64,000 nucleotides of DNA from an uncultured candidatus Porisulfidus sp. (GTDB lineage Bacteria > Pseudomonadota > Gammaproteobacteria > Poriferisulfidales > Poriferisulfidaceae): contig OZ220480.1 in assembly GCA_965116025.1 (NCBI GenBank), positions 1,120,001 to 1,184,000 on the forward strand. The letters run 5' to 3'. Numbering within the stretch: the stretch's first letter is position 1; every line of letters starts with the position of its first letter. The position numbers were made by a program, and so were the translations under genes. Positions 1-34,131 of this stretch are shown piece by piece. Under the pieces are notes generated by a model. That model did no database searches. It saw only the letters and a list, made by a program, of their open reading frames with translations, and was not told the origin of the DNA.

Positions 1-767
1 GATCGCGTCCACTTCTTGATGGAATTTATATCTTGGTTGGACTTCGTGAGGATCGATTCAACAAGGCTCGCTCGTTGGGTCATCCATGCTTGATCTTCGG
101 CGCATTCTTCCATAATGGCGCTACGGGCGATATGAATTAAACCTTTAGTCTTATTGCTGGGCGACCAGTGGCGTAGCTTTAGCGTTGTCCAGAACACTTT
201 TCGGCTGAAGCTGATAACCAGAGCTGAGCCGGGCCTGTCCCCGAGATGTTCTCTACGCTTTTTCCTTGCGGAGTGGAGAGCGGCCACTGAACGCCAGATT
301 AATTCCAAACGGCTTTGGCTAAGTTCGCGTGGACGCCTTCGCATGATGGTGTCGTAAAGAGTTTCCAACGTGGTTTGGCCTGTTTCATCATGGACTCTCG
401 TCGACCCGAAATCCAGACCGTCCGCCACAATCATGGCGAGGTGAATCGGGCCATCAAACCTTTTCGATAGATCGAGCACTAGCCGCCATAATGCATCAGG
501 CAAGGCATGGTGCCGTTCGGCCGAACACTCTTCGAGCCCTGCCGTATAGGCGAAGGCATCCGTCGCGTCGAGGAGAGGTTCCTGTGTTCGAGCGTCGCGC
601 GCCGAGGCAAGCGCTTGCCCGCCGAGCAGCCAAACGTCTTGATGGCGATACAGACAAGAGCGGAATCCGAGAGTGGTGGTTCGCGCTATGCCACCCGCGT
701 CAGTTTGTTGCCCAACCACGAGGTGATCAAGCCATCCATTCAGGTCGACGATGACGAAGCGGTCCAC
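1..767 (-). CDS. Partial CDS (runs off the left edge), divergent Hsp70/actin-like ATPase-fold protein (CnuD-like)
   Basis: Not in the ORF track. Hand translation from GTG at 767, immediately after the upstream TGA, is open to the window edge: MDRFVIVDLNGW...HLAMIVAD...LELIWRSVAAL...SALVISF. This echoes the order of Hsp70 motifs GIDLG / AVITVP / LINEPTAAAL / VLVFD. Confidence 0.55.
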   Translation of the reverse strand, partial: MDRFVIVDLNGWLDHLVVGQQTDAGGIARTTTLGFRSCLYRHQDVWLLGGQALASARDARTQEPLLDATDAFAYTAGLEECSAERHHALPDALWRLVLDLSKRFDGPIHLAMIVADGLDFGSTRVHDETGQTTLETLYDTIMRRRPRELSQSRLELIWRSVAALHSARKKRREHLGDRPGSALVISFSRKVFWTTLKLRHWSPSNKTKGLIHIARSAIMEECAEDQAWMTQRASLVESILTKSNQDINSIKKWTR

Positions 768-768
768 G

Positions 769-2250
769 TCAGGAAGCGATTTGGGCCGCCCATTCGCTAA
801 GCCTCGCGTCCCATTCGTGCTCTGGAATCCAAGGCAGTTCTCCGACTGCGACATCCGCATTCATGCGTTCCGAGGAATCAATCGCGTCCCACCATATTCC
901 TGCCCCGGGCTCCATTTCGGCTATTGCGCCCAAACGGTTCTGGTTCCCATTGGACTCATATCTGAGGAACTTGGTGGAGTCAGAACCGGATTCCCCAAAA
1001 GTGCATTGAATGCCTCCGCGCAAATAACGCCCCTTCGAAGGGGCGTCCTTCTCTCGTAGCATCGGACTATGGGCGAGTATGTCAAAGCCCTTTTCGCGAA
1101 GTTTCATGGCCGCGCGCAGTCCTAACAGCTCCATGAACGTCCGATGTTGCCACATCCATTCAAGCTCGGTGGCCGCGCTCCTCGCTCGCAAGTCTTGCCA
1201 AGCGCGCCAAATGTTCCGATATCGTGGATCGAATCGAAGAGGAAAATTGGGTTTGACCGGTGCTATTGCCTTAGGAACCTTCCGCGCTCTAAGCGTGGCC
1301 TCAATCTGCCGAGCACGGAGTTGATGCGCTTGGATGATGGTGAAGTTGGGTTCACCTTTTTGGCGACTGACAAGCCAATTCTCCGCCTCACGTATCGTCA
1401 ATGCGGCGAATGCCCGCAAAACCTGATTTTCCAGCGTTGAGATCGTTTCATACCGTTTTGGGGCCTTAATGCGTTGCCGCCCCCCGGCGCGTTCGGCAGC
1501 ACTTTTTCCTGGTTGGGCGGAGAGCCAGCGTAGCGTCTTCGCGTCGATGCGACGAGCGTCCTGCAACTTTAACATTCGGTGTTCCGTGCTCAGCACCGAT
1601 CTGGGGCGGGCACCGAGGTCGTCCAGCGTACCCTTCAGCCTTTTAGCCTGCGTTACCAACAGTTCCCCAAGAGGGTCAGCATCTCCGTATCTTTGATCGC
1701 TCCAGATCTCCTCCAGTCGCTCATACGCGACTCCTATCGATGGCTGAGCGGAGAAAGCGTCCGGCACCATATCGAGAACGCATGCGGCGCGCCTTAATAT
1801 CCTCAATCGTCCAGCATTCGCGTTGTCGCATTCGTTAGATGAGCGTTCCGGCCAATCGGATACGTCGATTTTGAGCACCGTTTTCGGGTCTGGGCATATG
1901 GTGATGATTAAGATTCGGTCTGCTCCAGCGCGCCACGGCGCGAGCCACGCTTCCAACTCATCGCAACTACGCTCGTCGCCTTCGCTGATGCATCCAGCTG
2001 ACAAAGTGCCTCGGATCTTCCCTGGCGCTTGGGGAAGGGTTTGGCGAAACCGCCCCTCCAAAACCGGAAACTCTTTCGGTAGCGCGCCAAGGGTCGCTAC
2101 GATGACTGGCGGGCCGGATAACCGAAAAGATGCTGTTTCGCCTAACTTAATCTCCTTAATGCCCTCATATTTTTCGCCCATGGCTTCACGACTGAATGCC
2201 CGAAAAGAAGGGTAGATCCATATGCCGCTATTTTTCTGATCTTTCCTCAT
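769..2250 (-). CDS. DUF2357 (McrC N-terminal-like) domain protein, CnuC-like
   Basis: Motifs TLENQVLRAF and PNFPLRFDPRYRNIW are typical of DUF2357. Lies directly after the McrB-like gene. Start placed at ATG 2250, overlapping the upstream stop. Confidence 0.7.
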   Translation of the reverse strand: MRKDQKNSGIWIYPSFRAFSREAMGEKYEGIKEIKLGETASFRLSGPPVIVATLGALPKEFPVLEGRFRQTLPQAPGKIRGTLSAGCISEGDERSCDELEAWLAPWRAGADRILIITICPDPKTVLKIDVSDWPERSSNECDNANAGRLRILRRAACVLDMVPDAFSAQPSIGVAYERLEEIWSDQRYGDADPLGELLVTQAKRLKGTLDDLGARPRSVLSTEHRMLKLQDARRIDAKTLRWLSAQPGKSAAERAGGRQRIKAPKRYETISTLENQVLRAFAALTIREAENWLVSRQKGEPNFTIIQAHQLRARQIEATLRARKVPKAIAPVKPNFPLRFDPRYRNIWRAWQDLRARSAATELEWMWQHRTFMELLGLRAAMKLREKGFDILAHSPMLREKDAPSKGRYLRGGIQCTFGESGSDSTKFLRYESNGNQNRLGAIAEMEPGAGIWWDAIDSSERMNADVAVGELPWIPEHEWDARLSEWAAQIAS

Positions 2251-4645
2251 AAGTGTAGCCTGGCCAATTGAATATCTGGGTCGTTTGGGAGCTTTTGAGT
2301 GCTTCCCTAAGCGTTTCCGCGAAAGATGAGTCGTCGAGGTCATCCTCCGTTAACGTTAAGAGACCCTCGATTTGTTCATTACAGTCATGCATTTCCGCGC
2401 CTGCCAGTTTTGGCAGAAGGCGCATGTTGATCTGATCGATCATTGGCTCCCGCCAATCTTTGCCGGGATATCGATCAATGTAAGCCTTGATGCTTTGGGC
2501 GATCCGGTAGCCAAATCCTCGTCCGGCATTCTGCATAAGATCAGCGAGTTGTTTCAGCGTCTCATCCACTTTATTGTCGCCCTTAGTTTTCGTGATATCA
2601 GACCAGCTGAGCCATCGCTCGTAAGGCAAATAACCTTCAGACGGGCGAAAGTCACGTTCCGGTGGCTTGCTATGCTTGCAAAGCGCGTCAGGCTTCGGTG
2701 GCGCGAAGCGGATAGAATTCGCTCGATCCAATACTTTGTCGGATAACGCTTGGGTGGTCTCATCTTCATTCAGCGTTCCCACCCACAAAACGTTGTGAGG
2801 AATATGCAGATGCTTTGGCTCTTCCTCCTCGGCGTAGGGCATATCGATCGCAATTCGTGAATCGTGATGGTTATCGCTTGAAGCATCGTCGTCCGAGATT
2901 TCGCGAGTTCCACGCATTTCTAACCGTGACAAAAACTCCGAAAAATAATATTCCGTTCGCGCCAAATTCATTTCATCCAACAGAATGATGAGCATCCGTT
3001 TGCGCCAGTCTCTATCGTTCTCGTTCTTGATCCCAATGTCTTCCATGAAATCCTTGTCGAAATGACCAAGAGCGCGGGCGCGGTCAGTTGGGCGGTAACG
3101 CTCCGCGACAAAGTCGTAGAAGCCTAAAAGGTCTTGCGGAGAGTCCCAGCCAGGCTCGACAGGAACATGCAGAAAGTGAATTCCGAAAAAGCGAGCATAA
3201 GCCCGTGGCAATTGGCTTTTTCCTGTGCCACTCAGGCCACTCAGTACGGTCAGTGGAGATAAGTCGTTCACTTTCAAGGCCGTGTGGAAAGCTCGAATGA
3301 TTCGCTTTGGATAGTACAGATTTTGCTTTTCTAGGCCCGACATGAATTCGCTGAGCATAGTGTCTTCCTTTTTCTCTTCGCTCGCTTCCTCGAATTGTTT
3401 CACAAGACAGTCTGGCGGAGACTTAAACATGCTGAGTTTGTCTTTCGGATCGGTTTTTCCGGGGACTTCCTTGACCGCGACATTGAGCGAATGATCCGGG
3501 AACTGAATTTCTGTCTTCTCGATGGTTCTTGTTACCGCTTCGATTGCCTCATGCTTCTGTTTCGTCTCGGCAAGACTTTTCTTCGCGCCACCAAGATCCT
3601 GTTTCGTTTTATCAAGGCTATGCTGAAGTCGATTTCGCTCCTCCTCCAATTCTTGAATCTCGCGGTAAAGCTGGTCCCGCCAAGACTTCTTTCCTTTCAC
3701 ATCTGTTTCCAGTTCATCGAATTCTTTCTTGCGCTTCTCGAGATATTCTTTCCAATCCGCTTCGGGCGCGGCGATTTCTGGCGGATACTTGCTACCCAAG
3801 ATGGATTGGATTTCATCCAGCCTGCGCGCGGCCTCTGCTCGCCTGACTTCTAATTCGGTGATTTTCTTCAACTCTTCCTTCTCGAACAGCTTCTTTTGGT
3901 CTTCCAGCCGTTCCATAGCGGTTTTCATCTCATCATGCTCTTGCTTGCGCCGCTCGAGATATCCCTTCCAATCTGCTTCGGGCGCAGCGATTTCTGGTGG
4001 ATATTTTCCCAAGGCTGATCGGATATCATCCAGCCTGTGCGCGGCTTCCGCGCGCTTGAGCTCTAACCCGTTGATTCGCTCAGACCACTCTTTCCCTATC
4101 TGTTCTCTTCGGGCCTTTAACTGCTCCATAGCAGTTCTCAACTCATCGTGTTCTTTCTTGCGTTTCTCGAGATATTCTTTCCAATCCTCTTTGGCCTCAA
4201 TAATTTCTGATGGGTACTGATCCAATGCGGATTGAATATCATCCAGTCTGCGGGCGGCCTCTTCGCGTTTAATTCCCAAATCGTCGATTCGCCTCGATTC
4301 TTCCCGCTCGAATTCTTCCAACTCTCTTTTCATTCGCTCTAGGTTCTGGTGGTCCTGTCTCACCGTTTCCCATCGTTCTATGGCTTCTCGGGCCCTGAGT
4401 TCTTTCTTCTGCAGGGTATCCAGATGTTCCATTTTTCCTTGCTCTTCCTCTTGGATAGATTTGCGCAGGCTTTCTAATCGAATGTGTTTTTCCTCAAGGA
4501 GTTTTTCCAACTCGTCGATTGATCTCTCTTTCGTCGTTATGCGTCGCCAGTAATCTGATCGGCCTATAACAAAAATAGCTGTCAGCACGGCTATGAGTGC
4601 CAGAATAAGCATAAGGAATAAACCGAAGAGCTCGTTATTAATCAT
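2228..4645 (-). CDS. McrB-family AAA+ GTPase with N-terminal TM helix and long coiled coil (CnuB-like)
   Basis: Walker A GLSGTGKS, Walker B ILLDEMN, VEPGWDSPQDLLG and signature GTLNEDETT (NxD form). Hydrophobic residues 5-27, then about 350 aa of E/K/R-rich coiled coil. Confidence 0.85.
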   Translation of the reverse strand: MINNELFGLFLMLILALIAVLTAIFVIGRSDYWRRITTKERSIDELEKLLEEKHIRLESLRKSIQEEEQGKMEHLDTLQKKELRAREAIERWETVRQDHQNLERMKRELEEFEREESRRIDDLGIKREEAARRLDDIQSALDQYPSEIIEAKEDWKEYLEKRKKEHDELRTAMEQLKARREQIGKEWSERINGLELKRAEAAHRLDDIRSALGKYPPEIAAPEADWKGYLERRKQEHDEMKTAMERLEDQKKLFEKEELKKITELEVRRAEAARRLDEIQSILGSKYPPEIAAPEADWKEYLEKRKKEFDELETDVKGKKSWRDQLYREIQELEEERNRLQHSLDKTKQDLGGAKKSLAETKQKHEAIEAVTRTIEKTEIQFPDHSLNVAVKEVPGKTDPKDKLSMFKSPPDCLVKQFEEASEEKKEDTMLSEFMSGLEKQNLYYPKRIIRAFHTALKVNDLSPLTVLSGLSGTGKSQLPRAYARFFGIHFLHVPVEPGWDSPQDLLGFYDFVAERYRPTDRARALGHFDKDFMEDIGIKNENDRDWRKRMLIILLDEMNLARTEYYFSEFLSRLEMRGTREISDDDASSDNHHDSRIAIDMPYAEEEEPKHLHIPHNVLWVGTLNEDETTQALSDKVLDRANSIRFAPPKPDALCKHSKPPERDFRPSEGYLPYERWLSWSDITKTKGDNKVDETLKQLADLMQNAGRGFGYRIAQSIKAYIDRYPGKDWREPMIDQINMRLLPKLAGAEMHDCNEQIEGLLTLTEDDLDDSSFAETLREALKSSQTTQIFNWPGYTYEERSEK
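3715..4270 (-). repeat. Three tandem ~71-aa (213-nt) repeats inside the McrB-like coiled coil
   Basis: RxEAAxRLDxIxSxL..YPxEI....DWKxYLExRKxExDE occurs three times and is also visible at DNA level near 3729, 3945 and 4158. Confidence 0.9.
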
Positions 4646-4710
4646 GGAATTGGCATAGTGCCTTCAGCACAAAAGTTCCGTGTGAATCAGGAGTAGGGAT
4701 ATCACGTTGA

Positions 4711-5553
4711 TCAGCTATTCTTATTTGGTCCATAAAGGGAATCAAGGGTTTCAATCAATCGTCGAATTTTCTCGCGAGCTCTTTTCTCGTCATTTGCCAA
4801 CATCTGCAGTTGATCAGACTCTATCTCGATTTTATTTTTCAATTTCCGCAATTGGTCGGACGCGGTTACCACGTCATTGATCAAGCTGTTCAGCTCGGTT
4901 CGTTTAGCGCGCAACCGACTATTGACGTCATCCAACTCAGATTCGACTTGTGCTAAATCATTTTTGGTAGCTGTGGTATCCTCTTTCACCTGAGCCAATT
5001 CGCGTTTCTTCGTGTTGATCAGACCGTGTATCTCATTCAGTTTCGTTCGGGAATCGTCCGCGCGATTCGAATAATTCTCTATCGCATTTCGGTATTCTGT
5101 GGTTTCCGCGTTTAGTTGGTCAACTTTGGTTTTCAGTGCCGACTTATCGGACATCAACTGGTCAACCTCTTTAACCAGCCGGTCCTTCTCTGCCCGAGTT
5201 CTCGATTCTTCAGCTTGCAAGCCTGGGAGCTTCTTGGCGAGACGGTCTGCTGCTTTCTCTTCCACACGGAGAGAGGATAGGTTTGATTGGATTTGTGCCA
5301 TCTCGCCGGTAAGCTGATCTCTCTCTGCTCTGAGCTCGGTCAGGTCGTTGGTAAGCTGGTCCCTCTCCGCTCTGAGCTCAATCAGGTTTTCGGCAATACG
5401 CTTGGCTTCTTTGCGGTCTTTAGGCAGAGTCACAACTTCCGCAGCGACTCCGACCCCGGCGATAATAAGCAATATCGCGGTCAGCAACAATAACGCCGTG
5501 CCAAACGTACGCAGACGGTCCGACTTGAGCGCATTAGATTTCGATTGGGTCAT
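4711..5553 (-). CDS. Membrane-anchored coiled-coil protein (CnuA-like)
   Basis: N-terminal TM segment (FGTALLLLTAILLIIAGVGVAA) followed by a heptad-rich region including a 14-aa duplication ELRAERDQLT. Confidence 0.75.
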   Translation of the reverse strand: MTQSKSNALKSDRLRTFGTALLLLTAILLIIAGVGVAAEVVTLPKDRKEAKRIAENLIELRAERDQLTNDLTELRAERDQLTGEMAQIQSNLSSLRVEEKAADRLAKKLPGLQAEESRTRAEKDRLVKEVDQLMSDKSALKTKVDQLNAETTEYRNAIENYSNRADDSRTKLNEIHGLINTKKRELAQVKEDTTATKNDLAQVESELDDVNSRLRAKRTELNSLINDVVTASDQLRKLKNKIEIESDQLQMLANDEKRAREKIRRLIETLDSLYGPNKNS

Positions 5554-6469
5554 CCTTCATCTCCCATGCTGAGGTTTTTCTTGTCCGTGGTTCTGGGGAA
5601 GCCATATCCGCAAGGACGCGCGTGAGACACGCATCTTGGTCTCTCTTGATTTCATCCGCCCAAAAGCGAACGGGGCGCCAGCCCAAGCGCCGGAGCGCCC
5701 GGTCTCTTTTTTCGTCCTGAGGCCGAAGATGCCCCGGTAATTCCTCATGCCAAAACCGCCCGTCGACTTCGACATCCAGCCTCACGGGGAGCCCGCCCGA
5801 CGTTCCAAGCACGGCGAAATCCAGATAGTAGCCCGCGACTGGCATTTGGGGAATCGGGTTGATCCCCGCGTCTTTCAGGCATTCGCCAAAATCTCGTTCT
5901 ATACGGGAAGTATGCGGTGCGGGCCCCAGCATGGGATCCCGCGAGAGTCTCCACCGTCTGCGAGCTTCCGCGAGAAACTTGTCGCCGTCGCCATGCCGCG
6001 TTCCGAACGCCGCGACGATGTGCACCGTTATCCCACGTTGCCGGGCCCCATGAATCATGCGAGCGAACGCGGGGCATTCGCCAGGCGCTTGGCTCCAGTC
6101 TCGTAGCGCGAATAGCAAATCCGACCGTTCCAGGCCGGCGTTGATACGGGTTGCCGTTTCTTCCGCGCGTCGCTCGTCGGTCATGGCTATGGATATGTCT
6201 CCCGCCTCGCGTCGCGCTACCGCGCGTTCCATTGATGCCGTATCGTTTGTCGATCCGGGCTCAGTGAATGTCCAATGCACTCCCGCCGTCCTGTTCTTCA
6301 GCAATTGCCATCGATTAAACGAGTTGACGACAAGTTCGCCACGAAGCATGGCTTTTCGGATGCGGTTCAGTCGCTCTGCCGGAGCGGCTCGAGATTGAGC
6401 AGGGCGATAGGTTCGCAATCTGCCGCCCAATGGCCGTCGCAAGTAGTGGTTTCCCGATATCCGATCCAC
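5534..6469 (-). CDS. DUF559/Vsr-like PD-(D/E)xK endonuclease domain protein
   Basis: C-terminal SRIE...PQMPVAGYYLDFAV...LDVEVDGRFWH...DEKRDRALRRLGWRPVRFW. Overlaps the next gene. Start uncertain. Confidence 0.8.
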   Translation of the reverse strand: MDRISGNHYLRRPLGGRLRTYRPAQSRAAPAERLNRIRKAMLRGELVVNSFNRWQLLKNRTAGVHWTFTEPGSTNDTASMERAVARREAGDISIAMTDERRAEETATRINAGLERSDLLFALRDWSQAPGECPAFARMIHGARQRGITVHIVAAFGTRHGDGDKFLAEARRRWRLSRDPMLGPAPHTSRIERDFGECLKDAGINPIPQMPVAGYYLDFAVLGTSGGLPVRLDVEVDGRFWHEELPGHLRPQDEKRDRALRRLGWRPVRFWADEIKRDQDACLTRVLADMASPEPRTRKTSAWEMKDDPIEI

Positions 6470-6539: not shown

Positions 6540-7838
6540 CTACTGATTCGTCACGAGCAACGTCTGGTTTCGCCCGCGAACGGCCGCGAGACGCTTCTCA
6601 ATCCGCTCGCGAATATCTTCTTGGACCTCCAGTTCTCGCGCGACCGTTGGCCATTGAGCCACCGCGTCCACGATCCGGTCGACTACGTCTTTCGCCTCTC
6701 TCCAGTTCTTGAAACCCGCGAGCCGGGCGAGCTGGCGCGCCGCTTCCAAAGGTGGGTTCTTTCCATGCCCCAAAAAAGCGGTCGCGTGCTCGCCATGGGG
6801 GTGCGGACTGAAAGTCGCGTCGTAGAACGGAGCGGGATTCCATTTTCCGTCGTCGTCCATGAGGAAGGACCAGTTCTTGCTATGGTCGTCTTGGTTGCAG
6901 GCGAACAGGTTGAACATGGCTCGCGCGAACTGGGCGCGCCCAGCGGCCGGACTTCGGCAAAGGGATAGGCTGGCCTTGATGACGGTCTCATAGTCGAGGG
7001 AGGGCTGTCTGAAGTCAGCGTCGAGAAGGCCGCATAGGGTTTGCATGTGGAGGCGACCGGTCTCGGGGCGAGTGGGATGGCAGTCGAAGCGGCGCAAGGC
7101 CAGCCAGGCGGGAGCCGGAAGATCCGCCGGGGGATCGATCAGGCGCCATTCGGGCGTTTGGATGCCGCAGTTTTCCGCGAGAGTCAGGTACGCGGCCTCG
7201 CATAGTCCTTCTTGGTGCCCCAGCGGCAGGTGTTGCGAAGTGAACTTCACGATCCATGGTTCCAGACCGGGCCGGGATTTCGTGGAAGCGTGAAGGGTTT
7301 CCTCTGGAGATAGATAGATTTGGGCTTTCGGCCGAGAACCGCCGGGACTGCCGCCATGGCGGGCGAGCGCATCTGTGACCGTCGCGGTCGATCCCTCGAA
7401 GAACTCCACGGCGCTCCTGCCGAGGTCCGCGACATCAATCGAGTCGTCCGGCGCGTCTGGCGAGATTTCCGAGACCGGATCGTACGCGAGGGCTCCAAGA
7501 CCATGCTCGCCGACGTACGCCAGTCGGTCCAGAGCCGAAACCTGATCTTGAGCCAATCCGTGGCGCGCGAAGACTCGATTCATCAACGACAAGCCCCAGC
7601 TATCCGGAAGCGAATCGGCGAACGCGCCGTGCAGTCCGCCGTGAGGGCTCGCGGGGGCCTGTCGCAACTCGGCGTTGAAGGGGAGGGTGAAAGGGGATAG
7701 GCTGGAGAAGCGATCGACGTAGTCCGGGCCATATTGAAAGAACGTCGCGTCGCGGTTCCGCGCGAGCTCGCCAACCTGAACTCTCCGACCGTCGCTCAGT
7801 CGGCTAAAGACCCGAAGTTTCTTGATGGGCCGGAACAT
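6540..7838 (-). CDS. hipA: HipA family toxin (Ser/Thr kinase)
   Basis: DSLPDSWG, GGSPGGSRPKA, NQDDHSKNWSF, PAPFYD. ATG at 7838 overlaps the upstream TGA. Confidence 0.9.
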   Translation of the reverse strand: MFRPIKKLRVFSRLSDGRRVQVGELARNRDATFFQYGPDYVDRFSSLSPFTLPFNAELRQAPASPHGGLHGAFADSLPDSWGLSLMNRVFARHGLAQDQVSALDRLAYVGEHGLGALAYDPVSEISPDAPDDSIDVADLGRSAVEFFEGSTATVTDALARHGGSPGGSRPKAQIYLSPEETLHASTKSRPGLEPWIVKFTSQHLPLGHQEGLCEAAYLTLAENCGIQTPEWRLIDPPADLPAPAWLALRRFDCHPTRPETGRLHMQTLCGLLDADFRQPSLDYETVIKASLSLCRSPAAGRAQFARAMFNLFACNQDDHSKNWSFLMDDDGKWNPAPFYDATFSPHPHGEHATAFLGHGKNPPLEAARQLARLAGFKNWREAKDVVDRIVDAVAQWPTVARELEVQEDIRERIEKRLAAVRGRNQTLLVTNQ

Positions 7839-8125
7839 CAGGATTCGACCACCTCGGAGATTTTTCGGGGTGCCGGCTTCGGAGGGTCCGCCAGGATGGC
7901 CAGAGCGTCCAGTCGGTCCACGCACTGCCAAAGCAGGAGGAACTGGCGTAGCGAAATCTCCCCGGTGGTTTCGAACCGCTTGATGGTGGGCGCGGGCACC
8001 GCGCTACGCTCGGCCAGAGCCTCGCGGGAGAGTTTCCTCCTCTTGCGTCGCGTTCGCGTGGCGCGGGCCAGTTTTTGCTGGACCTCGAAAGGGCTATGCA
8101 GGGAAATCAACGTCATGGAATCCAC
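7838..8125 (-). CDS. XRE-family HTH antitoxin (HipB-like)
   Basis: RKRRKLSREALAERSAVPAPTIKRFETTGEISL HTH; translationally coupled to hipA. Confidence 0.85.
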   Translation of the reverse strand: MDSMTLISLHSPFEVQQKLARATRTRRKRRKLSREALAERSAVPAPTIKRFETTGEISLRQFLLLWQCVDRLDALAILADPPKPAPRKISEVVES

Positions 8126-8755: not shown

Positions 8756-9736
8756 CTAGGGAATGTGACGCTCGATCAGGCTCGCTAGGGCGCGTATGTG
8801 ATTGGGGCTATCGTTGAGAGCGGGAATATACCGAAACGTTCGTCCGCCCGCCTCAAGGAACACGTCCCGATTTTCTTGGGCGATCTCCTCCAGGGTCTCC
8901 AGACAGTCGGCGGAGAAGCCCGGGCAGAACACGTCGACCGAGCGCGCGCCGCCCGCGGCCAGTTCGCGCAACGTCTCGTCGGTGTAGGGATTCAGCCATT
9001 CTTTGGGGCCGAAGCGAGACTGGAAGGTCATGCGCCATTGGCTCTCCAGCAGGCCCAGCGCCTGAGAGATTCTATAGGCGGTATTGTGGCATTGCCGGGC
9101 ATAGGGGTCTCCCCGCTTGATCGATTCCTTCGGCAGTCCATGGAATGAGAGAACCAGCAACTCGCTGGGGCCGTTCCGCTCCCGGAAGTCTCGAATTTGG
9201 GAGACGCAGGAGCTCAGGTAGGCCGGATCGTCCGCGTAGTGGTCGATGAACCGGATTTCTGGAGCGTCGCCTTTCTGACTGAGCGCGTTGTCCAGAGCGT
9301 CGCGCGTGGAAACCGTCGTGGCGTTGGAGAATTGCGGATAGAGGGGCAGGACGATCAGGACGCGAGCTCCTTCCAGCTCCTTGATCGCCCGTGCGATGGA
9401 TGGCTGGCCGTAGCGCATTCCCAGCGCGACTCTCGTTGAGTGTCCGCGCCGACCGAGCTCCTCCCGTAACGCGTCGCGCTGGCGTTCGCTGTAGACGAGC
9501 AGAGGCGAGCCTTCCTCCATCCAGACTTTCTGGTACAGGCGGGCGCTACGCTGGGGACGGACGCGCAGAACGATGCCGTGCAGGATCGGTTGCCAGAGTA
9601 ACGGAGAAAGAGGAATCACGCGGCGGTCCGACAGGAATTCCGCGAGATAGCGGCGAACCGCTGGCGGGGTCGGCTCGTCAGGGGTCCCGAGGTTGGAAAT
9701 CAGGACCCCGACGCGGGACCCCGGCTCTTCCGTCAC
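8756..9736 (-). CDS. hemH: Ferrochelatase
   Basis: NLGTP, PLYPQFS, SFHGLP, FQSRFG, DCLETLEEI. GTG start at 9736 overlaps the HNH gene stop. Confidence 0.95.
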   Translation of the reverse strand: MTEEPGSRVGVLISNLGTPDEPTPPAVRRYLAEFLSDRRVIPLSPLLWQPILHGIVLRVRPQRSARLYQKVWMEEGSPLLVYSERQRDALREELGRRGHSTRVALGMRYGQPSIARAIKELEGARVLIVLPLYPQFSNATTVSTRDALDNALSQKGDAPEIRFIDHYADDPAYLSSCVSQIRDFRERNGPSELLVLSFHGLPKESIKRGDPYARQCHNTAYRISQALGLLESQWRMTFQSRFGPKEWLNPYTDETLRELAAGGARSVDVFCPGFSADCLETLEEIAQENRDVFLEAGGRTFRYIPALNDSPNHIRALASLIERHIP

Positions 9737-10320
9737 TTCTCGGTCCGCTCGCGCAAGGGGCTGGTGCGGGGGAAGTGGGCGCGCAGGAATTCCATCTGGT
9801 CCGCCAGCACCCGGCGGCCCTGCAGATAGATGTACTCGGCGTGGGTCGGCACGAAAGGAATCGCGAGCAGATGCATTCCGGCCTCCTCCGGAGTCCGGCC
9901 CGCTTTCTGGTTGTTGCAGCGCTTGCAGGCGGTCACCACGTTGTTCCACTCATCCGCGCCGCCCAGACTCAGGGGGTGGACGTGGTCGCGGGAAAGCTCC
10001 CGGCGCTCGAACGAGCCTCCGCAGTACAGGCACAGCCAAGCGTCGCGCTTGAACAGGGTTGGGTTGTTCAGCGGCGGCGTGTAGGTCTCCCGCAACGTAT
10101 GGTTGTTGCCATAGGTCGCGATGATGGAGTTGAGGGTGAGGATGGTGCGCCGTCCAGTGATGGCGTTATGCCCTCCTCGCGCGCGCAGAATGTCTTGGCC
10201 GCTAACATAGGCGACCTGTCCCGCGTAATGCAGGCGTACCGCCTCCTGGTAGCCGATCCACTCCAGAGGCATTCCAGAGATATCGGTGCGGAGGATTTGC
10301 TGCGTCAACACGTCCAACAT
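9733..10320 (-). CDS. HNH endonuclease
   Basis: RDAWLCLYCG, DHVHPLSLGG, NVVTACKRCNNQK. Confidence 0.9.
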   Translation of the reverse strand: MLDVLTQQILRTDISGMPLEWIGYQEAVRLHYAGQVAYVSGQDILRARGGHNAITGRRTILTLNSIIATYGNNHTLRETYTPPLNNPTLFKRDAWLCLYCGGSFERRELSRDHVHPLSLGGADEWNNVVTACKRCNNQKAGRTPEEAGMHLLAIPFVPTHAEYIYLQGRRVLADQMEFLRAHFPRTSPLRERTEK

Positions 10321-10340
10321 GACTGCGCTCGCTCCATTTT

Positions 10341-10379
10341 CGCGCCTCACTTTATACCGATTCGCCCGACTTTACAACT
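10341..10379 (-). repeat. 39-bp imperfect direct repeat, copy 1 (sigma70-like promoter)
   Basis: Matches 11693-11731 at 34 of 39 positions. Minus strand reads TTGTAA-N17-TAAAGT. Confidence 0.7.
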
Positions 10380-10409: not shown

Positions 10410-11564
10410 TCACGATAGCGCGATTTCAACCTCGCGGGCGTACTCTTGGAACGCATCGCCATACAGCCCGGTCAGGTCATAAGCTTCCTTGAAGCTGACG
10501 CGTCCCTCCTGGGCCGCTCGGGTCAGGTGAGAAGCGAACAGCCGACCAACACGATTATCCTGATTGTCGCGGAAGCTCCCACTTTGCCGTTCCGTTCGCT
10601 TTCGGCATTCTCTTCGCGTATAGCCGTGGTGGAAACGAAAAAAATCGTCACGCCCCATCAAGTCAAGATCCATCGCTCTTCGTCCAATCGCGACGGGGCT
10701 GACTTTGAAGCGCTCGGCCAGCTTTTCCAGAGACGTTGCATCGTTGGCGACCGAGCGCCAAGCGGCGCGCATCTCGGTGGAAGGGATGAGGAGTTCGGCT
10801 GCCGCATGATCGCAAAATCGCTCTATCTCTCCGTCGCCGGGCTGCAACCCTTGGAAGCCGGACAGGCCTTCACCCATATCGCCCAGCCACAAATGCGCGA
10901 ATTCGCGCGCGAGGGTAAACATTTGGGTGGATTTCGCGTCAGCCCCATTGATGAAAATCAATGGAGCATGGGGATCACTCAGGGCGAAGCCGCGAAATTC
11001 GTTCACATTCAGCTTGCGATAGTCGTCATTTCCGACGATGCCGTTGATAATCGCCATGACGCCAAGTCGCTCAATGGCTTCACGTAGTTCGCTCACGGCG
11101 ACGGTCCGGGTTCGCGCCAGCTTTGCCCAGCCATCAACTAGCCCAAGCGCTCGCTGCATTTCCTGACCGATAGATGCCGGGTTGTCCGAAAGCGAAGCGG
11201 TTCCGACGAAACCAACCGGTTCCGCGTCGGTTTCCATTCGCTCTTCCCGTAGCCATGCCTGCCGGCGCCGCATGAGGTGGACGGTATCCATCAGCTCCGG
11301 GCTTATGCTTGGAGGACGTTGACGTTTGATCGCGCGGAAGTCCGCGAGTGGAAAACGGATTACCGGTGGTTCTGGCAGGAAAAGAAATCCGTACGGCACC
11401 CGCATCGCTTTGGCGAAAGCTTGCAACTGTTTCATCGTGGGCTGGATGGATGCGCTTTCCCAGTCAGCCAACTTCGGGAACTTGTTTCTCAGGTCCGCCA
11501 ATTCGAATCCGGCGCGTTCCCGGGCCCAGCTAAGAACTTCTGGGCTGACCGCTACCCGGGTCAT
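10410..11564 (-). CDS. XRE HTH plus ImmA/IrrE-family metallopeptidase-like protein with degenerate active site
   Basis: LSWARERAG HTH, EFRGFAL, IFINGAD. FTLAREFAH stands where FTLAHELAH is expected. Confidence 0.85.
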   Translation of the reverse strand: MTRVAVSPEVLSWARERAGFELADLRNKFPKLADWESASIQPTMKQLQAFAKAMRVPYGFLFLPEPPVIRFPLADFRAIKRQRPPSISPELMDTVHLMRRRQAWLREERMETDAEPVGFVGTASLSDNPASIGQEMQRALGLVDGWAKLARTRTVAVSELREAIERLGVMAIINGIVGNDDYRKLNVNEFRGFALSDPHAPLIFINGADAKSTQMFTLAREFAHLWLGDMGEGLSGFQGLQPGDGEIERFCDHAAAELLIPSTEMRAAWRSVANDATSLEKLAERFKVSPVAIGRRAMDLDLMGRDDFFRFHHGYTRRECRKRTERQSGSFRDNQDNRVGRLFASHLTRAAQEGRVSFKEAYDLTGLYGDAFQEYAREVEIALS

Positions 11565-29373: not shown

Positions 29374-32300
29374 TCACCACCGGAGGGAGGCGCGCAAGGC
29401 GATCCGGCTCTCGTCGCCGGTCTCCGCCTCCAGCGCCAGCGCCAGCGTCTCGCCACGGCGGTAGCGCGTCCCCAATCGCAGCAGCGCCAACCCGGACTCC
29501 TCCACCGACAGCCCCGCGTACGGCGTCACCAGCGACGCCCACGGCCCCGACAGCCCCTGACCCACCTCCGCCTCCAGCCGCGTCCGAGCCTCCGCCTCCC
29601 CCAGCCTCGCCGACGACCCCTCCCGCGCGAACAGCCGCGCCAGCCCGCTCCCCGCGTCGCCCCGACCCAGCGACAGCCGCAGCGACGGACCCCGACCGCT
29701 CGCCTCCGGCGTCACCGACATCCGCGCGCTCGCGCTCCACTCGTCCCGATCCGCCTCGTGCGCCACCAGCGCCCGCGTCCGAAGCTCCACCGACATCCGA
29801 CCCGTCCCATCCAAGTACGACACGCTCGCCCCCAGCTCCGCCCCCGCCCCGTCCGTCGCGTCGCCCCCGTCGTAGCGCGCCCCCGCCTCCAGCGCCGGCG
29901 TCAGCCGGCCCCCGTCCTCCAAGACCCGCTCCCGCGACCCCTCCAGCGCCAGCCGAACACGGCTCGCGTCCACCGACAGCCCCTCCAGCCCGTCCTCCGC
30001 GTCCGTCCGCGCCCGCGCCAGCGAGCCCTCCCCCCGCAGCGCCAATCGCAGAACGTCTCCTCCCGCGCCCGAGCGCTCCGACAGCGTCCGCCAGCCCCCC
30101 GCCGACGCGCTCCGCGTCCGCAAGTCCGCCTCCCGCGTCGCCTGACCGTCCTCCCGCACCCGAACCTTCCCGCGCCCGTAGCTCGCGCTCGCCCACACGC
30201 TCGACCCGTCCTCCAAAAGCCACGCCACATACGGGCGCACCGACGCCAGCCGCGTCTCGTGCCGCCCCCGAACCCCGTCCGCCTCCGTGTCCAGATCGCC
30301 CTCCGCGTAGGACGCCGCCACCCCCGCCAGAACGTCCGGGCGCGCCCGGAAGTCCACCCCGGCGTGCGCCGACCACACCTCCCCGTCCCAGGACACCCCG
30401 TCCTCCGACCCGTCCAGCGACGACAGCGCCCCGCGAACCCACGCCGACGCCACCCGGCTCCCGTCCGCCCCGGTCAGCCCCGTCGCCAGCGCCATCCCGG
30501 ACAGCGCCGCCCGCCAGTCCAGCCCGGCCCCGTCCGCGCCCGCCCCCGACGCCAGCGCCGCGCCCAGGTCCAGCGCCTCCGGCTCCACCCCCGACGCCGC
30601 GAGCTCGATCCGCTGGGCGATCACCCCGGTCGCCTGCGCCACCGCCGCCGCCAGCGCCTGCGGCAGCGCCGCCGCGTTCACCCGGCTCGCCCGCGCCGCC
30701 GCCCCCAGCCGGTCGCTCACTATCCCGTCCGCCAGGGCGTCCGCCCCCACCGCGTAGCCCGTCCCCGCCAGCAGCTCGACCCGGTACGCCTCCTCCCCCT
30801 CCGACCCCTGATCTCCTGCCGTCGGGATCAGTACGATCCCCGTCATCCCCGCCTCCGCCCCGAAGTCCGCCTGGAAGTCCCGCGGGCCCAGCCCGCCCTC
30901 CACGTCCTCCGCGTCGAAGCCGCTCTCCTCCCGCGCCGACAGCCTCAGGCGAACCGTCAGCATGCCCGTCACCGCCTTGTCCGACGCCACCGTCAGCCGG
31001 ATCGCCTCCCCCTCCGCCGTCACCGACGGATCCATCGATAATTGCAGGATCGGGGTCGTCTCCGACACCGACACCGACACGGCCGACAGCGTCGCCGCGT
31101 CGTAGCCCCCGCCCGCGATCGCGTGCGTCAGCGTCACCGCCGCCTCCGCCTCCGCGTCCTCGTCCGGCGCCGCCGACACCGTCACCGTCCGCGCCGTCGA
31201 CCAGCTCGCCGCCGTGAACGTCAGGCTCGTCGGCGCCGCCGACACGTCCCCCGACGCCCCGCTCACCGACACCACCACGTCCCCCGCCTCCGGCGGCGGA
31301 ATGTGCAGAACCACCGTGTACGCCGCGCTCCCGCCCTCCACGACCGTCAGCTCCGTCGGCGCCACCGTCCCCCCGGGATCGTCCTCCGTCACCGACACCG
31401 ATACCGACCCGAACGCCACCGCGTCGTAGCCCCCGCCCGTCGCCGAGTGCGTCAGCCGCGTCGGCGGGTCCGGCATCGTGTCGTCGTCCTGCGCCGCCGA
31501 CACCGTCACCGCCTGCGCCGTCGACCAGCTCGCCGTCGTGAACGTCAGGCGCGTCGGCGTCGCCGACACGTCTCCCGACGCCCCGCCCACCGACACCGTC
31601 ACCGCCGCCGACGGCTCCGCCCCCAGAACCACCGTGTACGAGCCGCTCCCGCCCTCCGCCACCGTCAGCGCCGCCGTCGACACCGTCGCGCTCGCCGCGT
31701 CGTCGTCCTCCACCGTCACCGTCACGCTCCCCGCCGTCACGCTCCCGTAGCCCGACACCGCGTGGCTCACCGTCACCTCCTCGTCGCCCACGTCGTTGTC
31801 CTGAACACCGGACACCGACACCGTCTGGGCCATCGACCAGTTCGCCGTCGTGAACGCCAGCGACCCCGACGCCGTCGCCGCCCCCGGGTCCGAGCTCGAC
31901 GGCGCCACCGTCACGCCTCCCTCCGGCTTCGCGTTCAGCCGCACCGTGTAGGTCTTGGTTCCGTCCTCCGCCACCGTCAGCTCCGAGCGCGACAGGATCA
32001 CCCCCGGCGCCGCCGTCGGCGTCGCCTTCACCTCGTTCGACCAGACCGACCTAAGGGTCGACGCGCCACTGCCGGCACTGGCGTACAGCCGAAACGTGTA
32101 TTCCGTCCCGTTCGTCAGACCCGATACCGTCGCGCTCGTCGCGCCGCCGTCCGAGACCGTCCCGGGCGTTGTCGCGCTCGGGCCCCAGACATCCGAACTC
32201 TCCTTGTATTCGTAACCCCAGCTCGTGATCGTGAAACCCGGCAGCGCGTTCCAACTCAGCGTCACCTGGCCGTCGCCCGCCATCGCCACGAGACCGGCCG

Positions 32301-34131
32301 GCTTCGCCGGACGCCCTCCCGCCACCGTCGCCGTCGGCGTCGCCGACTCCTGGTTCGACTGTGGGCCCGCGCCAGCGGAGTTCCTCGCCCGAACCCGAAA
32401 CGTGTACTCCGCGTCGTTGTCCAGCCCCGTCACCGCGTGGCTCCGGGTCGTCGCCCCCGAGCCCGGAACGTCGGTCCATCCGCCCCAGCCGCCGCTTCCC
32501 TTCCTTTGCCGGTATTGCCAAGCCGAGATCGTCGCGTCCTCCGGGTCGGTCCAGGACAAGGTCACCCGCCCGTCGCCCGCCGTCGCGGTGAGACCTTTCG
32601 GCTTGGCGGGCTTGCTCGAGAGCGTGGGATCGACCAGCGTCCCGTCCGCTTCCACGTCGTCCCCGACCGCGTACCCCGGACCGTCCTCCAGCGCGATCCG
32701 GTAGTCCTGATTGGTCTCCGCCTCCGAATCCAGCACCGTCTCGATCATCACCGTCGCCGTCATGACCATGCTCGTCCCGAACTCCGCGACGAAGTTCCTC
32801 AGACCCAGCGCGCCCTCGATATCGGCCGCGTCGAAACTGCTGGAACCCCCCCGGGCCGCCAGCCGCAAGCGCACCGTGAGGTCGCCCGTCCGTGCCTTGT
32901 CCGACGTGATCGTCAGGCTGATATTCTCCCCCTCCGTCGCGTCAGCCGGATCGGTCAGCAGCTGCAGCGTCGGCGTCACGTCCGACACCTCCACCTCCAC
33001 GGAGTCGACGCTCAGCGAGGAGCCGTAGGCCGCGTCCCCGCTGGACGCCGCGTGCGTCAGCTCCACGTTCTCGTCGTCCGCGTTCTCGTCCGCCGCCGCC
33101 GACACCGTCACCGTCTGGGCCACGCCGTAATCGCCGGTGGTGAACGTCAAGCTCGAAGGCGAGGCCGTCACCCCATCCCCGGCCCCGCCCACCGTCACCG
33201 TCACCGCCGCCGCTGGCTTCGTGTCCAGCTTCACCGTGTACGTCCTGCTCTCGCCCTCGCCCAGCATCAGCAACGTCGGCGAGACCGTCACGCCGAGGGG
33301 CAGGGTAGCCGTCGCCTCGAAGGAACGGGGTCTCGCAAACGTGAGCCCCGCGCCGGGCAGAGTATCCGCGCGTATGACATAGAAGGTGTACGTGGCGCCG
33401 TTGGTAAGACCCGTCACGGTGTGTGTTCGAATCGCCGTACCGCCGGGAATTGGCTGATGGTCGCCGTAGGCGCCATCGCCCTCCTTCTGCCGGTACGCCC
33501 ACCGTTCGAAACCCGAGGAGCCCGTGTAGGTCCAAGCTAATGTCACCTGCCCATCGCCCGCCGTGGCGGTCAGGGGCGGGCTCGAGGTGCCGGTCGGCGT
33601 CGCCGTCTTTTCCGTGATCGCGCCCTTGACGCCGTTTTTCACGGCGCGCAGCCTGACGGTGTAAAGCAGACCAGCGTGCGCGTTCTGGATATTCAGGAAT
33701 TTAACAGTAGTGGTGAAAGTCGGGATGGAGATCCAGTCTCCATAACTGCCCGTTCCGAACTTGTACTGATATTCCCAGCCGGTGACGCCGGCTATTTGGT
33801 TCCATCGCAATTGCACTGTATAGTCGCCCGACGTGAGGCTCAGCGTCGGCGCGGCGGGCTGTTGCTGCGCCCGCGCGTCCTGCGGCGCGAGAGCGGCGGC
33901 GAGGGTCAGCAGAAGAGTAGCGGCGCATGCCGCTGTCAGGCGTCGGGCGACCCTCCAGATGCCGCGCGCCGGCTCAGGCTCGCGCGCGGACACGAGATAT
34001 AGGGGGGGGGGGGGGGGGGGGGCGAGCGAAGCCAGAGCGCCAGCGCGCTTCCTGGCGACGATGTTCCGCATTGCGAATTCGTCCGTCATCATGCTCATGG
34101 CTTCCTGTTCGTCACGGACTTCCGTCGCCAA
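29374..34131 (-). CDS. Large autotransporter adhesin with fibronectin type III and Ig/Calx-beta-like repeats
   Basis: Signal-like segment ending AxA (DARA); four FN3 units (e.g. LTATAGDGxVTLxW); repeated VxEGxSxxYTVxL units; C-terminal barrel-like region ending in Trp. Start uncertain. Confidence 0.85.
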   Translation of the reverse strand: MATEVRDEQEAMSMMTDEFAMRNIVARKRAGALASLAPPPPPPLYLVSAREPEPARGIWRVARRLTAACAATLLLTLAAALAPQDARAQQQPAAPTLSLTSGDYTVQLRWNQIAGVTGWEYQYKFGTGSYGDWISIPTFTTTVKFLNIQNAHAGLLYTVRLRAVKNGVKGAITEKTATPTGTSSPPLTATAGDGQVTLAWTYTGSSGFERWAYRQKEGDGAYGDHQPIPGGTAIRTHTVTGLTNGATYTFYVIRADTLPGAGLTFARPRSFEATATLPLGVTVSPTLLMLGEGESRTYTVKLDTKPAAAVTVTVGGAGDGVTASPSSLTFTTGDYGVAQTVTVSAAADENADDENVELTHAASSGDAAYGSSLSVDSVEVEVSDVTPTLQLLTDPADATEGENISLTITSDKARTGDLTVRLRLAARGGSSSFDAADIEGALGLRNFVAEFGTSMVMTATVMIETVLDSEAETNQDYRIALEDGPGYAVGDDVEADGTLVDPTLSSKPAKPKGLTATAGDGRVTLSWTDPEDATISAWQYRQRKGSGGWGGWTDVPGSGATTRSHAVTGLDNDAEYTFRVRARNSAGAGPQSNQESATPTATVAGGRPAKPAGLVAMAGDGQVTLSWNALPGFTITSWGYEYKESSDVWGPSATTPGTVSDGGATSATVSGLTNGTEYTFRLYASAGSGASTLRSVWSNEVKATPTAAPGVILSRSELTVAEDGTKTYTVRLNAKPEGGVTVAPSSSDPGAATASGSLAFTTANWSMAQTVSVSGVQDNDVGDEEVTVSHAVSGYGSVTAGSVTVTVEDDDAASATVSTAALTVAEGGSGSYTVVLGAEPSAAVTVSVGGASGDVSATPTRLTFTTASWSTAQAVTVSAAQDDDTMPDPPTRLTHSATGGGYDAVAFGSVSVSVTEDDPGGTVAPTELTVVEGGSAAYTVVLHIPPPEAGDVVVSVSGASGDVSAAPTSLTFTAASWSTARTVTVSAAPDEDAEAEAAVTLTHAIAGGGYDAATLSAVSVSVSETTPILQLSMDPSVTAEGEAIRLTVASDKAVTGMLTVRLRLSAREESGFDAEDVEGGLGPRDFQADFGAEAGMTGIVLIPTAGDQGSEGEEAYRVELLAGTGYAVGADALADGIVSDRLGAAARASRVNAAALPQALAAAVAQATGVIAQRIELAASGVEPEALDLGAALASGAGADGAGLDWRAALSGMALATGLTGADGSRVASAWVRGALSSLDGSEDGVSWDGEVWSAHAGVDFRARPDVLAGVAASYAEGDLDTEADGVRGRHETRLASVRPYVAWLLEDGSSVWASASYGRGKVRVREDGQATREADLRTRSASAGGWRTLSERSGAGGDVLRLALRGEGSLARARTDAEDGLEGLSVDASRVRLALEGSRERVLEDGGRLTPALEAGARYDGGDATDGAGAELGASVSYLDGTGRMSVELRTRALVAHEADRDEWSASARMSVTPEASGRGPSLRLSLGRGDAGSGLARLFAREGSSARLGEAEARTRLEAEVGQGLSGPWASLVTPYAGLSVEESGLALLRLGTRYRRGETLALALEAETGDESRIALRASLRW
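34002..34022. repeat. G21 homopolymer (poly-C on the coding strand, Pro7)
   Basis: 21 consecutive G in the 5' part of the autotransporter ORF. Confidence 0.95.

Follow-up and report, generated by a model that had tools for sequence, protein, structure and literature searches.

The DNA analysed here (the window) is a 64,000-nucleotide stretch of contig OZ220480.1 from an uncultured candidatus Porisulfidus sp., and it begins with a cassette that is a derived Type III-B coiled-coil nuclease tandem (CoCoNuT), in which all III-B genes but the helicase are present in order. The cassette consists of five uninterrupted open reading frames (ORFs) in the same orientation, all on the minus strand. In the direction of the genes these are ORF1 (5534..6469; 311 amino acids (aa), with the start uncertain between GTG 6469 and TTG 6442), a probable short derivative of the helicase-nuclease CnuHE; ORF2 (4711..5553; 280 aa), CnuA, for which Pfam returned only coiled-coil families; ORF3 (2228..4645; 805 aa), CnuB, with a membrane helix, a coiled coil and an McrB-type GTPase bearing an NxD motif; ORF4 (769..2250; 493 aa from ATG 2250), CnuC, an McrC homologue with a DUF2357 domain; and ORF5 (1..767 in the window, from GTG 767), CnuD, of which the window holds the first 255 of 837 aa. 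CnuD is complete in the genome, its stop codon lying at about window position -1746, approximately 1.75 kb to the left. A preliminary description had reported five co-oriented, mostly overlapping genes; orientation and coordinates agree with the ORF list, while the overlap is approximately right, since the successive junctions from ORF1 to ORF5 comprise two overlaps (20 nt, then after a 65-nt gap 23 nt) and a final gap of 1 nt.

Type III-B CoCoNuTs were described by Bell, Sahakyan, Makarova, Wolf and Koonin (eLife 2024, PMC11090510) as a CnuHE helicase-Vsr fusion, CnuA, an NxD CnuB, a nuclease-dead CnuC and an Hsp70-like CnuD; the CnuC of that subtype keeps an inactivated nuclease fold and an Ig-like domain. 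Related loci were collected with an McrB alignment search that yielded a sample of at least 80 genome and at least 80 metagenome loci, one of which, L024, encodes TBW38397, TBW38399 and TBW38400, the III-B representatives of that paper. The nearest relatives found for the cassette GTPase are III-B-type loci including TBW38399, in a tree that contained no other CoCoNuT type as outgroup. The type III assignment of the preliminary description was correct and is narrowed here to Type III-B. Because the helicase feature is absent, the cassette is not classed as a canonical member; no helicase gene, which the preliminary description had thought worth looking for to the left of the window, was found among the ORFs in the 10 kb there, and the missing helicase is a real difference of this locus that is common to its whole branch.

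The Vsr-like domain of ORF1 is the sole predicted nuclease of the cassette. The Pfam families MTES_1575 (E 6e-13) and DUF559 (E 1.5e-8) match above cut-off, in agreement with the DUF559/Vsr-like nuclease originally proposed. In the structure model (mean predicted local distance difference test score (pLDDT) 79), fold search and conservation place a Vsr/DUF559 nuclease domain of the PD-(D/E)xK fold at aa 186-293 (5591..5914), with Z 12.6 to 3hrl (root-mean-square deviation (rmsd) 1.9, 90 residues aligned) and Z 11.3 to Vsr 1cw0 (rmsd 2.5, 107 aligned); the best fold matches include the DNA enzymes Vsr and I-Bth0305I. Residues E191, Q208, D217, D232, E234, D236, H241 and R255 are invariant in 60/60 short-protein sequences. 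From knowledge of the Vsr/DUF559 family, we take the acidic residues and the histidine among these to be catalytic.

The 311 aa of ORF1 contain no Walker A motif and no Pfam match to AAA_11 or AAA_12, whereas the L024 helicase has both domains. Upstream of the nuclease, aa 62-178 (5936..6286) form in the fold search a RecA-like alpha/beta domain, likely a degenerate RecA2, with Z 7.0 to Upf1 642-844, 6.9 to Sen1 and 6.8 to Ighmbp2. The preceding aa 14-62 (6284..6430), poorly modelled at pLDDT 30-66, are likely a remnant of the CnuHE N-terminal winged helix: their best local match in the 1051-column CnuHE profile is to its first 65 columns (P 0.013), and against the winged-helix region alone the match has P 2.4e-4 at 44% probability. 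Each of these signals is weak, and the domain order winged helix, RecA-like, Vsr is the same as in CnuHE. In P0192, a further short protein of 365 aa, the CnuHE winged helix is clear (E 1.5e-13), and a helicase tail and Vsr are present without a motor; deletions that remove the motor therefore do occur. From this parallel and the shared domain order it is proposed, with moderate confidence, that ORF1 arose by an internal deletion of approximately 750 residues from CnuHE. Separately, P0189 and P0191 are helicase proteins of approximately 1,400 aa in which a C-terminal RecA2-Vsr-like unit is duplicated.

A profile search with the short protein returned 60 clusters at E <= 1e-30, of 206-365 aa, compared with only two proteins from a single-sequence search with its N-terminal part. 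For 24 of the 59 other clusters, the longest contig is equally long as that of a listed McrB holder. Beyond the short family, most of the 150 next-best matches (50%-identity representatives) are long helicase fusions, 92 of them having a superfamily 1 (SF1) Walker A motif. The locus census covered the 158 listed loci, the window among them, whose GTPase match exceeds 300 aa. Among these listed matches, 13 have the short Vsr protein without a helicase, 78 carry upstream a helicase ORF with Walker A (split in a few), 15 have neither upstream and 52 are cut by contig ends; in four of the 15 (L061, L082, L131 and L148) a helicase-Vsr gene lies downstream of cnuD instead. L010 and L011 also carry the short protein and stand outside the census, their GTPases being cut or split. 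A separate III-B-like branch was also observed (L049:6017-8380, L092:5406-8147, L132:5826-8540 and L134:5086-7800), in which a protein of 787-913 aa without Walker A occupies the helicase slot; three of these proteins were scanned and had no Pfam match, and they are possibly another effector.

Trees were built from all 103 distinct non-truncated GTPase rows and from subsets of 51 and 32, without an outgroup. In all three, the 12 distinct short-form GTPases fall on one side of a single branch, with support at best of bootstrap 94 and Shimodaira-Hasegawa approximate likelihood-ratio test 92 (100/100 for a core of nine), and this branch adjoins the helicase-bearing L012/L013 (96/97). Because the trees have no outgroup, speaking of a loss of the helicase rests on the remnants in ORF1 and on the statement in PMC11090510 that Types II and III almost always include the helicase. 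Ratios of nonsynonymous to synonymous substitution (dN/dS), calculated by the Nei-Gojobori method, were 0.13-0.48 for the N-terminal part of the short protein and 0.17-0.29 for its nuclease (five unsaturated of 45 pairs), and 0.17-0.41 for the other four genes in unsaturated pairs. All pairs with the copy in the window were saturated, and selection on that copy is inferred from its open frames. The short form persists across 40-55% protein divergence, in loci that are spread patchily over Alpha- and Gammaproteobacteria with unconserved neighbours. Since it recurs, forms one branch and is under purifying selection, the helicase-less form is a recurring variant and not decay.

One query for full-length CnuHE gave no match in 9/10 short-form genomes, of which only the host genome, itself among the nine, is of known completeness. 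The tenth, G042, has the short form plus a separate, complete helicase-bearing Type III-B operon (L177:3219-14718). The host does encode, approximately 790 kb away, a ProA-type protein of 1784 aa with a DUF4011-type helicase-Vsr architecture (L164:8310-13664, about 334-340 kb; NCBIfam 1950.8 bits against a cut-off of 1500). Its gene is divergent from a Cas4-Cas1 fusion gene (L164:13954-15705), and a literature search on ProA returned nothing relevant.

CnuC has its DUF2357 domain at about 1662-1348 (Pfam E 3.5e-6, above cut-off), and no conserved acidic/lysine motif was found in its tail across 26 aligned homologues, so that both the DUF2357 assignment and the missing PD-(D/E)xK motif of the preliminary description stand. 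The C-terminal nuclease-fold region is approximately 60 aa shorter in the core short-form branch: after the WxWQ motif, the tail has 125-158 aa in nine core loci compared with a median of 193 in 74 helicase loci. A CnuC profile gave no meaningful match to PDB sequences. For CnuD, sequence searches gave no match in Pfam or NCBIfam and no significant one to PDB sequences, and its fold was seen from the model only (pLDDT 90.5, built on a 76-sequence alignment), which has the actin/Hsp70 fold that had been suspected from ORF 1-767. The model divides into an Hsp70-like nucleotide-binding domain (aa 1-376), a beta substrate-binding domain to approximately aa 511 and HEAT-like helices (aa 533-837). 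It matches DnaK 4b9q (Foldseek E 4e-11), with the ribosome-associated Hsp70-family protein Ssz1 (5mb9) as the top match (Z 20.4, rmsd 3.8, 316 aligned), and aa 533-837 match importin beta (Z 12.4). The nucleotide motifs are degenerate, phosphate-1 reading VDLNG and phosphate-2 likewise degenerate, and the protein is approximately 20% identical to canonical CnuD.

By hydropathy, CnuA and CnuB each have a single hydrophobic helix, at aa 16-38 of CnuA (about 5508-5440), followed by the coiled coil, and at aa 7-29 of CnuB (about 4627-4559); their Kyte-Doolittle 19-mer maxima are 2.75 and 3.23, compared with at most 1.2 in the other five proteins. The coiled coil of CnuB, covered by SMC-type coiled-coil profile matches over aa 35-405, is lengthened here by a threefold repeat of approximately 213 nt (71 aa) each (3695..4312), where most relatives have one copy, and CnuA contains a 42-nt tandem duplication (5308-5387). 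The GTPase that follows in CnuB has Walker A at 470-477, Walker B at 555-560 and the NxD motif N626-E-D628, with a weak match to Pfam AAA_5 (E 0.003, below cut-off) and a strong one to PADLOC PDC-M26A (E 4.8e-38). The two transmembrane coiled-coil proteins and the NxD McrB GTPase of the preliminary description were thus recovered, and its view that membrane tethering is unusual was not. Among the matches listed, a hydrophobic helix occurs within the first 110 residues of 131/141 CnuB and 108/113 CnuA proteins, canonical members such as the representative L024 included, and one occurs in 2/132 CnuC, 0/117 CnuD and 0/72 CnuHE proteins. Given this near-universal presence in CnuA and CnuB and near absence from the other three, the predicted membrane anchors are a general Type III-B trait, and their treatment as specific to this locus was rejected.

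Counts of lysine and arginine within five residues of the helix are higher on the N side in 71/108 CnuA proteins (lower in 13) and higher on the C side in 108/131 CnuB proteins (lower in four). Under the positive-inside rule these flanking charges predict opposite topologies, with CnuB N-out/C-in and its GTPase cytoplasmic, and CnuA N-in/C-out and its coil outside. The predicted arrangement holds for the whole subtype and conflicts with the suggestion in PMC11090510 that CnuA, for which that source notes no recognisable domain except the coiled coil, associates with coiled coils of the system that lie in the cytoplasm; the word 'transmembrane' appears there in six passages, none of them on III-B. 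Small residues at -1/-3, as at signal-peptidase sites, end the CnuA helix in 8/11 short-form loci compared with 8/97 others, and a signal-peptidase site is possible in the CnuA of the window.

The cassette appears as a patchy, low-GC insertion. The GC content is 52.7% over the cassette genes and 62.7% in the genome, and approximately 8.4 kb of lower-GC DNA separates the stop codons of hipA and a desuccinylase-like gene, the nearest of the convergent housekeeping genes to the left of CnuD. A search of 40 relatives, including 15 congeners, did not find CnuD, and there was no match to it in plasmids. To the right lies a hipB-hipA pair (6540..8125, minus strand; hipB 8125-7838, hipA to 6540), upstream of the cassette and co-oriented with it. 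The preliminary description was correct that hipBA rather than an SF1 helicase lies upstream, but the pair, which it listed as unusual, does not belong to the system. HipA had no match among those listed for 160 related loci, and in 3/11 congener loci a hipA orthologue (72-73% identical) ends directly at the desuccinylase-like gene with no cassette; hipBA was accordingly rejected as a component and is a resident gene pair next to the insertion, whose right edge it marks. The site behind the desuccinylase-like gene varies across the congener loci L166-L176, with this hipA in three, another HTH-hipA-like pair in the opposite orientation in several and fxsA directly in two. The cassette is flanked by a short, imperfect direct repeat (22 nt, 77%) that is within chance, and there is no adjacent integrase, nor is there a TerY-P triad, the flanks being the desuccinylase-like gene and hipBA-fxsA-hemH. 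A promoter and terminator scan gave no higher counts than shuffled sequences did, and between hipA and the cassette it showed no promoter-like site on the minus strand; transcriptional read-through from hipBA is possible. A search of sequencing runs listed one holder and no RNA holder. Elsewhere in the window, an HNH gene (9733-10350) and a gene for a helix-turn-helix and IrrE/M78 peptidase protein (10410-11564) lie between hemH and priA, and a very GC-rich ORF of 1585 aa with 324-nt repeats (29374-34131) appears, by eye, to encode a fibronectin-type, autotransporter-like surface protein.

In McrBC, the GTPase is stimulated by the McrC part. A fairly probable explanation of the cassette is an anti-phage derivative of Type III-B with a motor-less Vsr-like nuclease and an McrB GTPase tethered to the inner membrane; the membrane-localised anti-phage complex of the preliminary description likewise stays a prediction. 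The helicase-nuclease gene was probably cut down by internal deletion to the motor-less protein, and CnuB, the only remaining motor because the helicase is gone, would form a GTPase ring at the cytoplasmic side of the membrane, which the DUF2357 part of CnuC would stimulate in the manner of McrBC. At the membrane, CnuB would engage DNA as it enters and permit the separate Vsr-like protein, standing in for the dead McrC nuclease, to cut that DNA; the CnuA coil, placed outside, could sense attachment or injection by a phage, and CnuD may be a near-inactive ATP-binding scaffold or sensor. CnuD is fused to CnuC in Type III-A.

Several observations weigh against this explanation. The RecA-like segment of ORF1 resembles helicase RecA2 no better than thymidine kinases (Z 7.2-7.7), its match to a RecA2 sequence profile is not significant (P 0.033, compared with 0.047 for an unrelated control), and 0/60 middle parts beat the 99th percentile of shuffles against that profile, as do only 17/57 N-termini against the winged-helix profile. 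The trees have no outgroup, and in one of them the midpoint root falls on the short branch. Topology was predicted from hydropathy and charge counts in related sequences that are not independent trials, and the CnuA charge bias is slight when counted in a 15-residue window (2.72 vs 2.44). Function could be reduced, given the short tail of CnuC and the degenerate motifs of CnuD, no experimental test of any CoCoNuT was found in the open-access literature searched, and PMC11090510 argues for RNA, not DNA, as the target.

This last point leads to the main rival of DNA cutting as ranked here, unlikely overall, in which the same cassette cuts RNA and induces dormancy or cell death, with membrane-located CnuD binding RNA or ribosomes and an RNase role for the Vsr-like protein. 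Such a mechanism is proposed for CoCoNuTs in section 9 of PMC11090510, where degenerate Hsp70 domains fit RNA binding, and it would suit both the ribosome-associated top match of CnuD and the additional matches of the nuclease model to RAP-type domains of FASTKD4 and mitoribosomal proteins (Z 10.8-11.2). However, the case made there for III-B runs only through similarity to III-A, the main RNA-linked parts, a UPF1-like helicase and its OB-fold (oligonucleotide/oligosaccharide-binding fold), are missing from the variant, there is no HEPN domain, and DNA enzymes are among the best nuclease matches. A more doubtful extension of the preferred anti-phage reading makes Type III-B a trans-envelope immune sensor, in which the outer CnuA coil would detect phage docking or injection and signal through the paired membrane helices to the McrB ring, the nuclease firing at the entry site; the helicase-less branch would then be the smallest version that still works, and signal peptidase might process its CnuA.

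It is improbable that the cassette has turned to a non-defence role in the envelope (sensing stress or controlling DNA uptake, for example) based on its two membrane coiled coils. The fact that helicase and CnuC tail are trimmed in parallel, the signal-peptidase-like residues concentrated in short-form CnuA, and a shift of this kind proposed in PMC11090510 for Pseudo-Type I-B are consistent with such a role, but the nuclease residues are invariant throughout the short family, and the patchy spread with unconserved neighbours is as expected of defence cargo. Highly improbable is a decaying copy, deprived of its helicase and no longer functional: although two-thirds of a defining gene is gone, CnuB is split in the short-form L011 and the CnuC/CnuD region of L014 is irregular, the five reading frames are uninterrupted in this copy and in most relatives, every unsaturated pair gives a dN/dS well under 1 and the form has been kept through the divergence given above. 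Least probable of all, a helicase encoded elsewhere would supply the missing motor, for which the host ProA and the full CnuHE of G042 are candidates, but ProA belongs to a different family (approximately 31% identical over part of its length), the G042 protein sits in its own complete operon and the other short-form genomes gave no full-length match to the one query used.

By analogy, the cassette would function as a Type III-B system minus the helicase. The architecture is mostly known, and what is new is the helicase-less, trimmed form, of which no report was found in the open-access literature searched. CoCoNuTs are widespread, but the literature searched treats them only as predictions. 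A natural version of 8 kb that lacks the helicase indicates that the helicase is dispensable in one branch, and with one motor and one nuclease left, DNA versus RNA as the target and restriction versus cell death become easier to test. The membrane helices across III-B add a family-wide trait that is absent from the main text of PMC11090510.

Compared with known systems, the cassette is closest to the Type III-B CoCoNuTs, with which it shares the order nuclease-cnuA-cnuB-cnuC-cnuD, an NxD coiled-coil McrB, a separate coiled-coil CnuA, a DUF2357 CnuC without catalytic motif, a separate CnuD of Hsp70, substrate-binding and HEAT parts, a Vsr-like effector and the absence of TerY-P. It differs in having no SF1 helicase motor, with 311 aa in place of a CnuHE of about 1,050-1,200 aa, and its branch differs from canonical III-B in the shorter CnuC tail and in a CnuA hydrophobic stretch that often ends signal-peptidase-like. 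The fusion of a transmembrane segment and coiled coil to an NxD McrB is also found in CoCoPALM (section 7 of PMC11090510); however, CoCoPALM goes with a SipA-like signal peptidase gene, none of which was found among the ORFs examined in or beside the cassette, and is not described there with CnuD or Vsr. Hhe and ProA, helicase-Vsr anti-phage proteins in PADLOC and NCBIfam, have the same MTES_1575/DUF559 domain (E 1e-8, 5.8e-8 and 1.6e-6), but they are single large DUF4011-helicase-nuclease proteins of which ORF1 matches the nuclease domain only, far below cut-off. With the canonical McrBC type IV restriction system of E. coli K-12 the cassette shares an AAA+ GTPase and an McrC-family stimulator, and it departs from that system in its NxD motif (NxxD there), in lacking a modified-base reader on McrB and an active McrC nuclease, and in its three extra genes.

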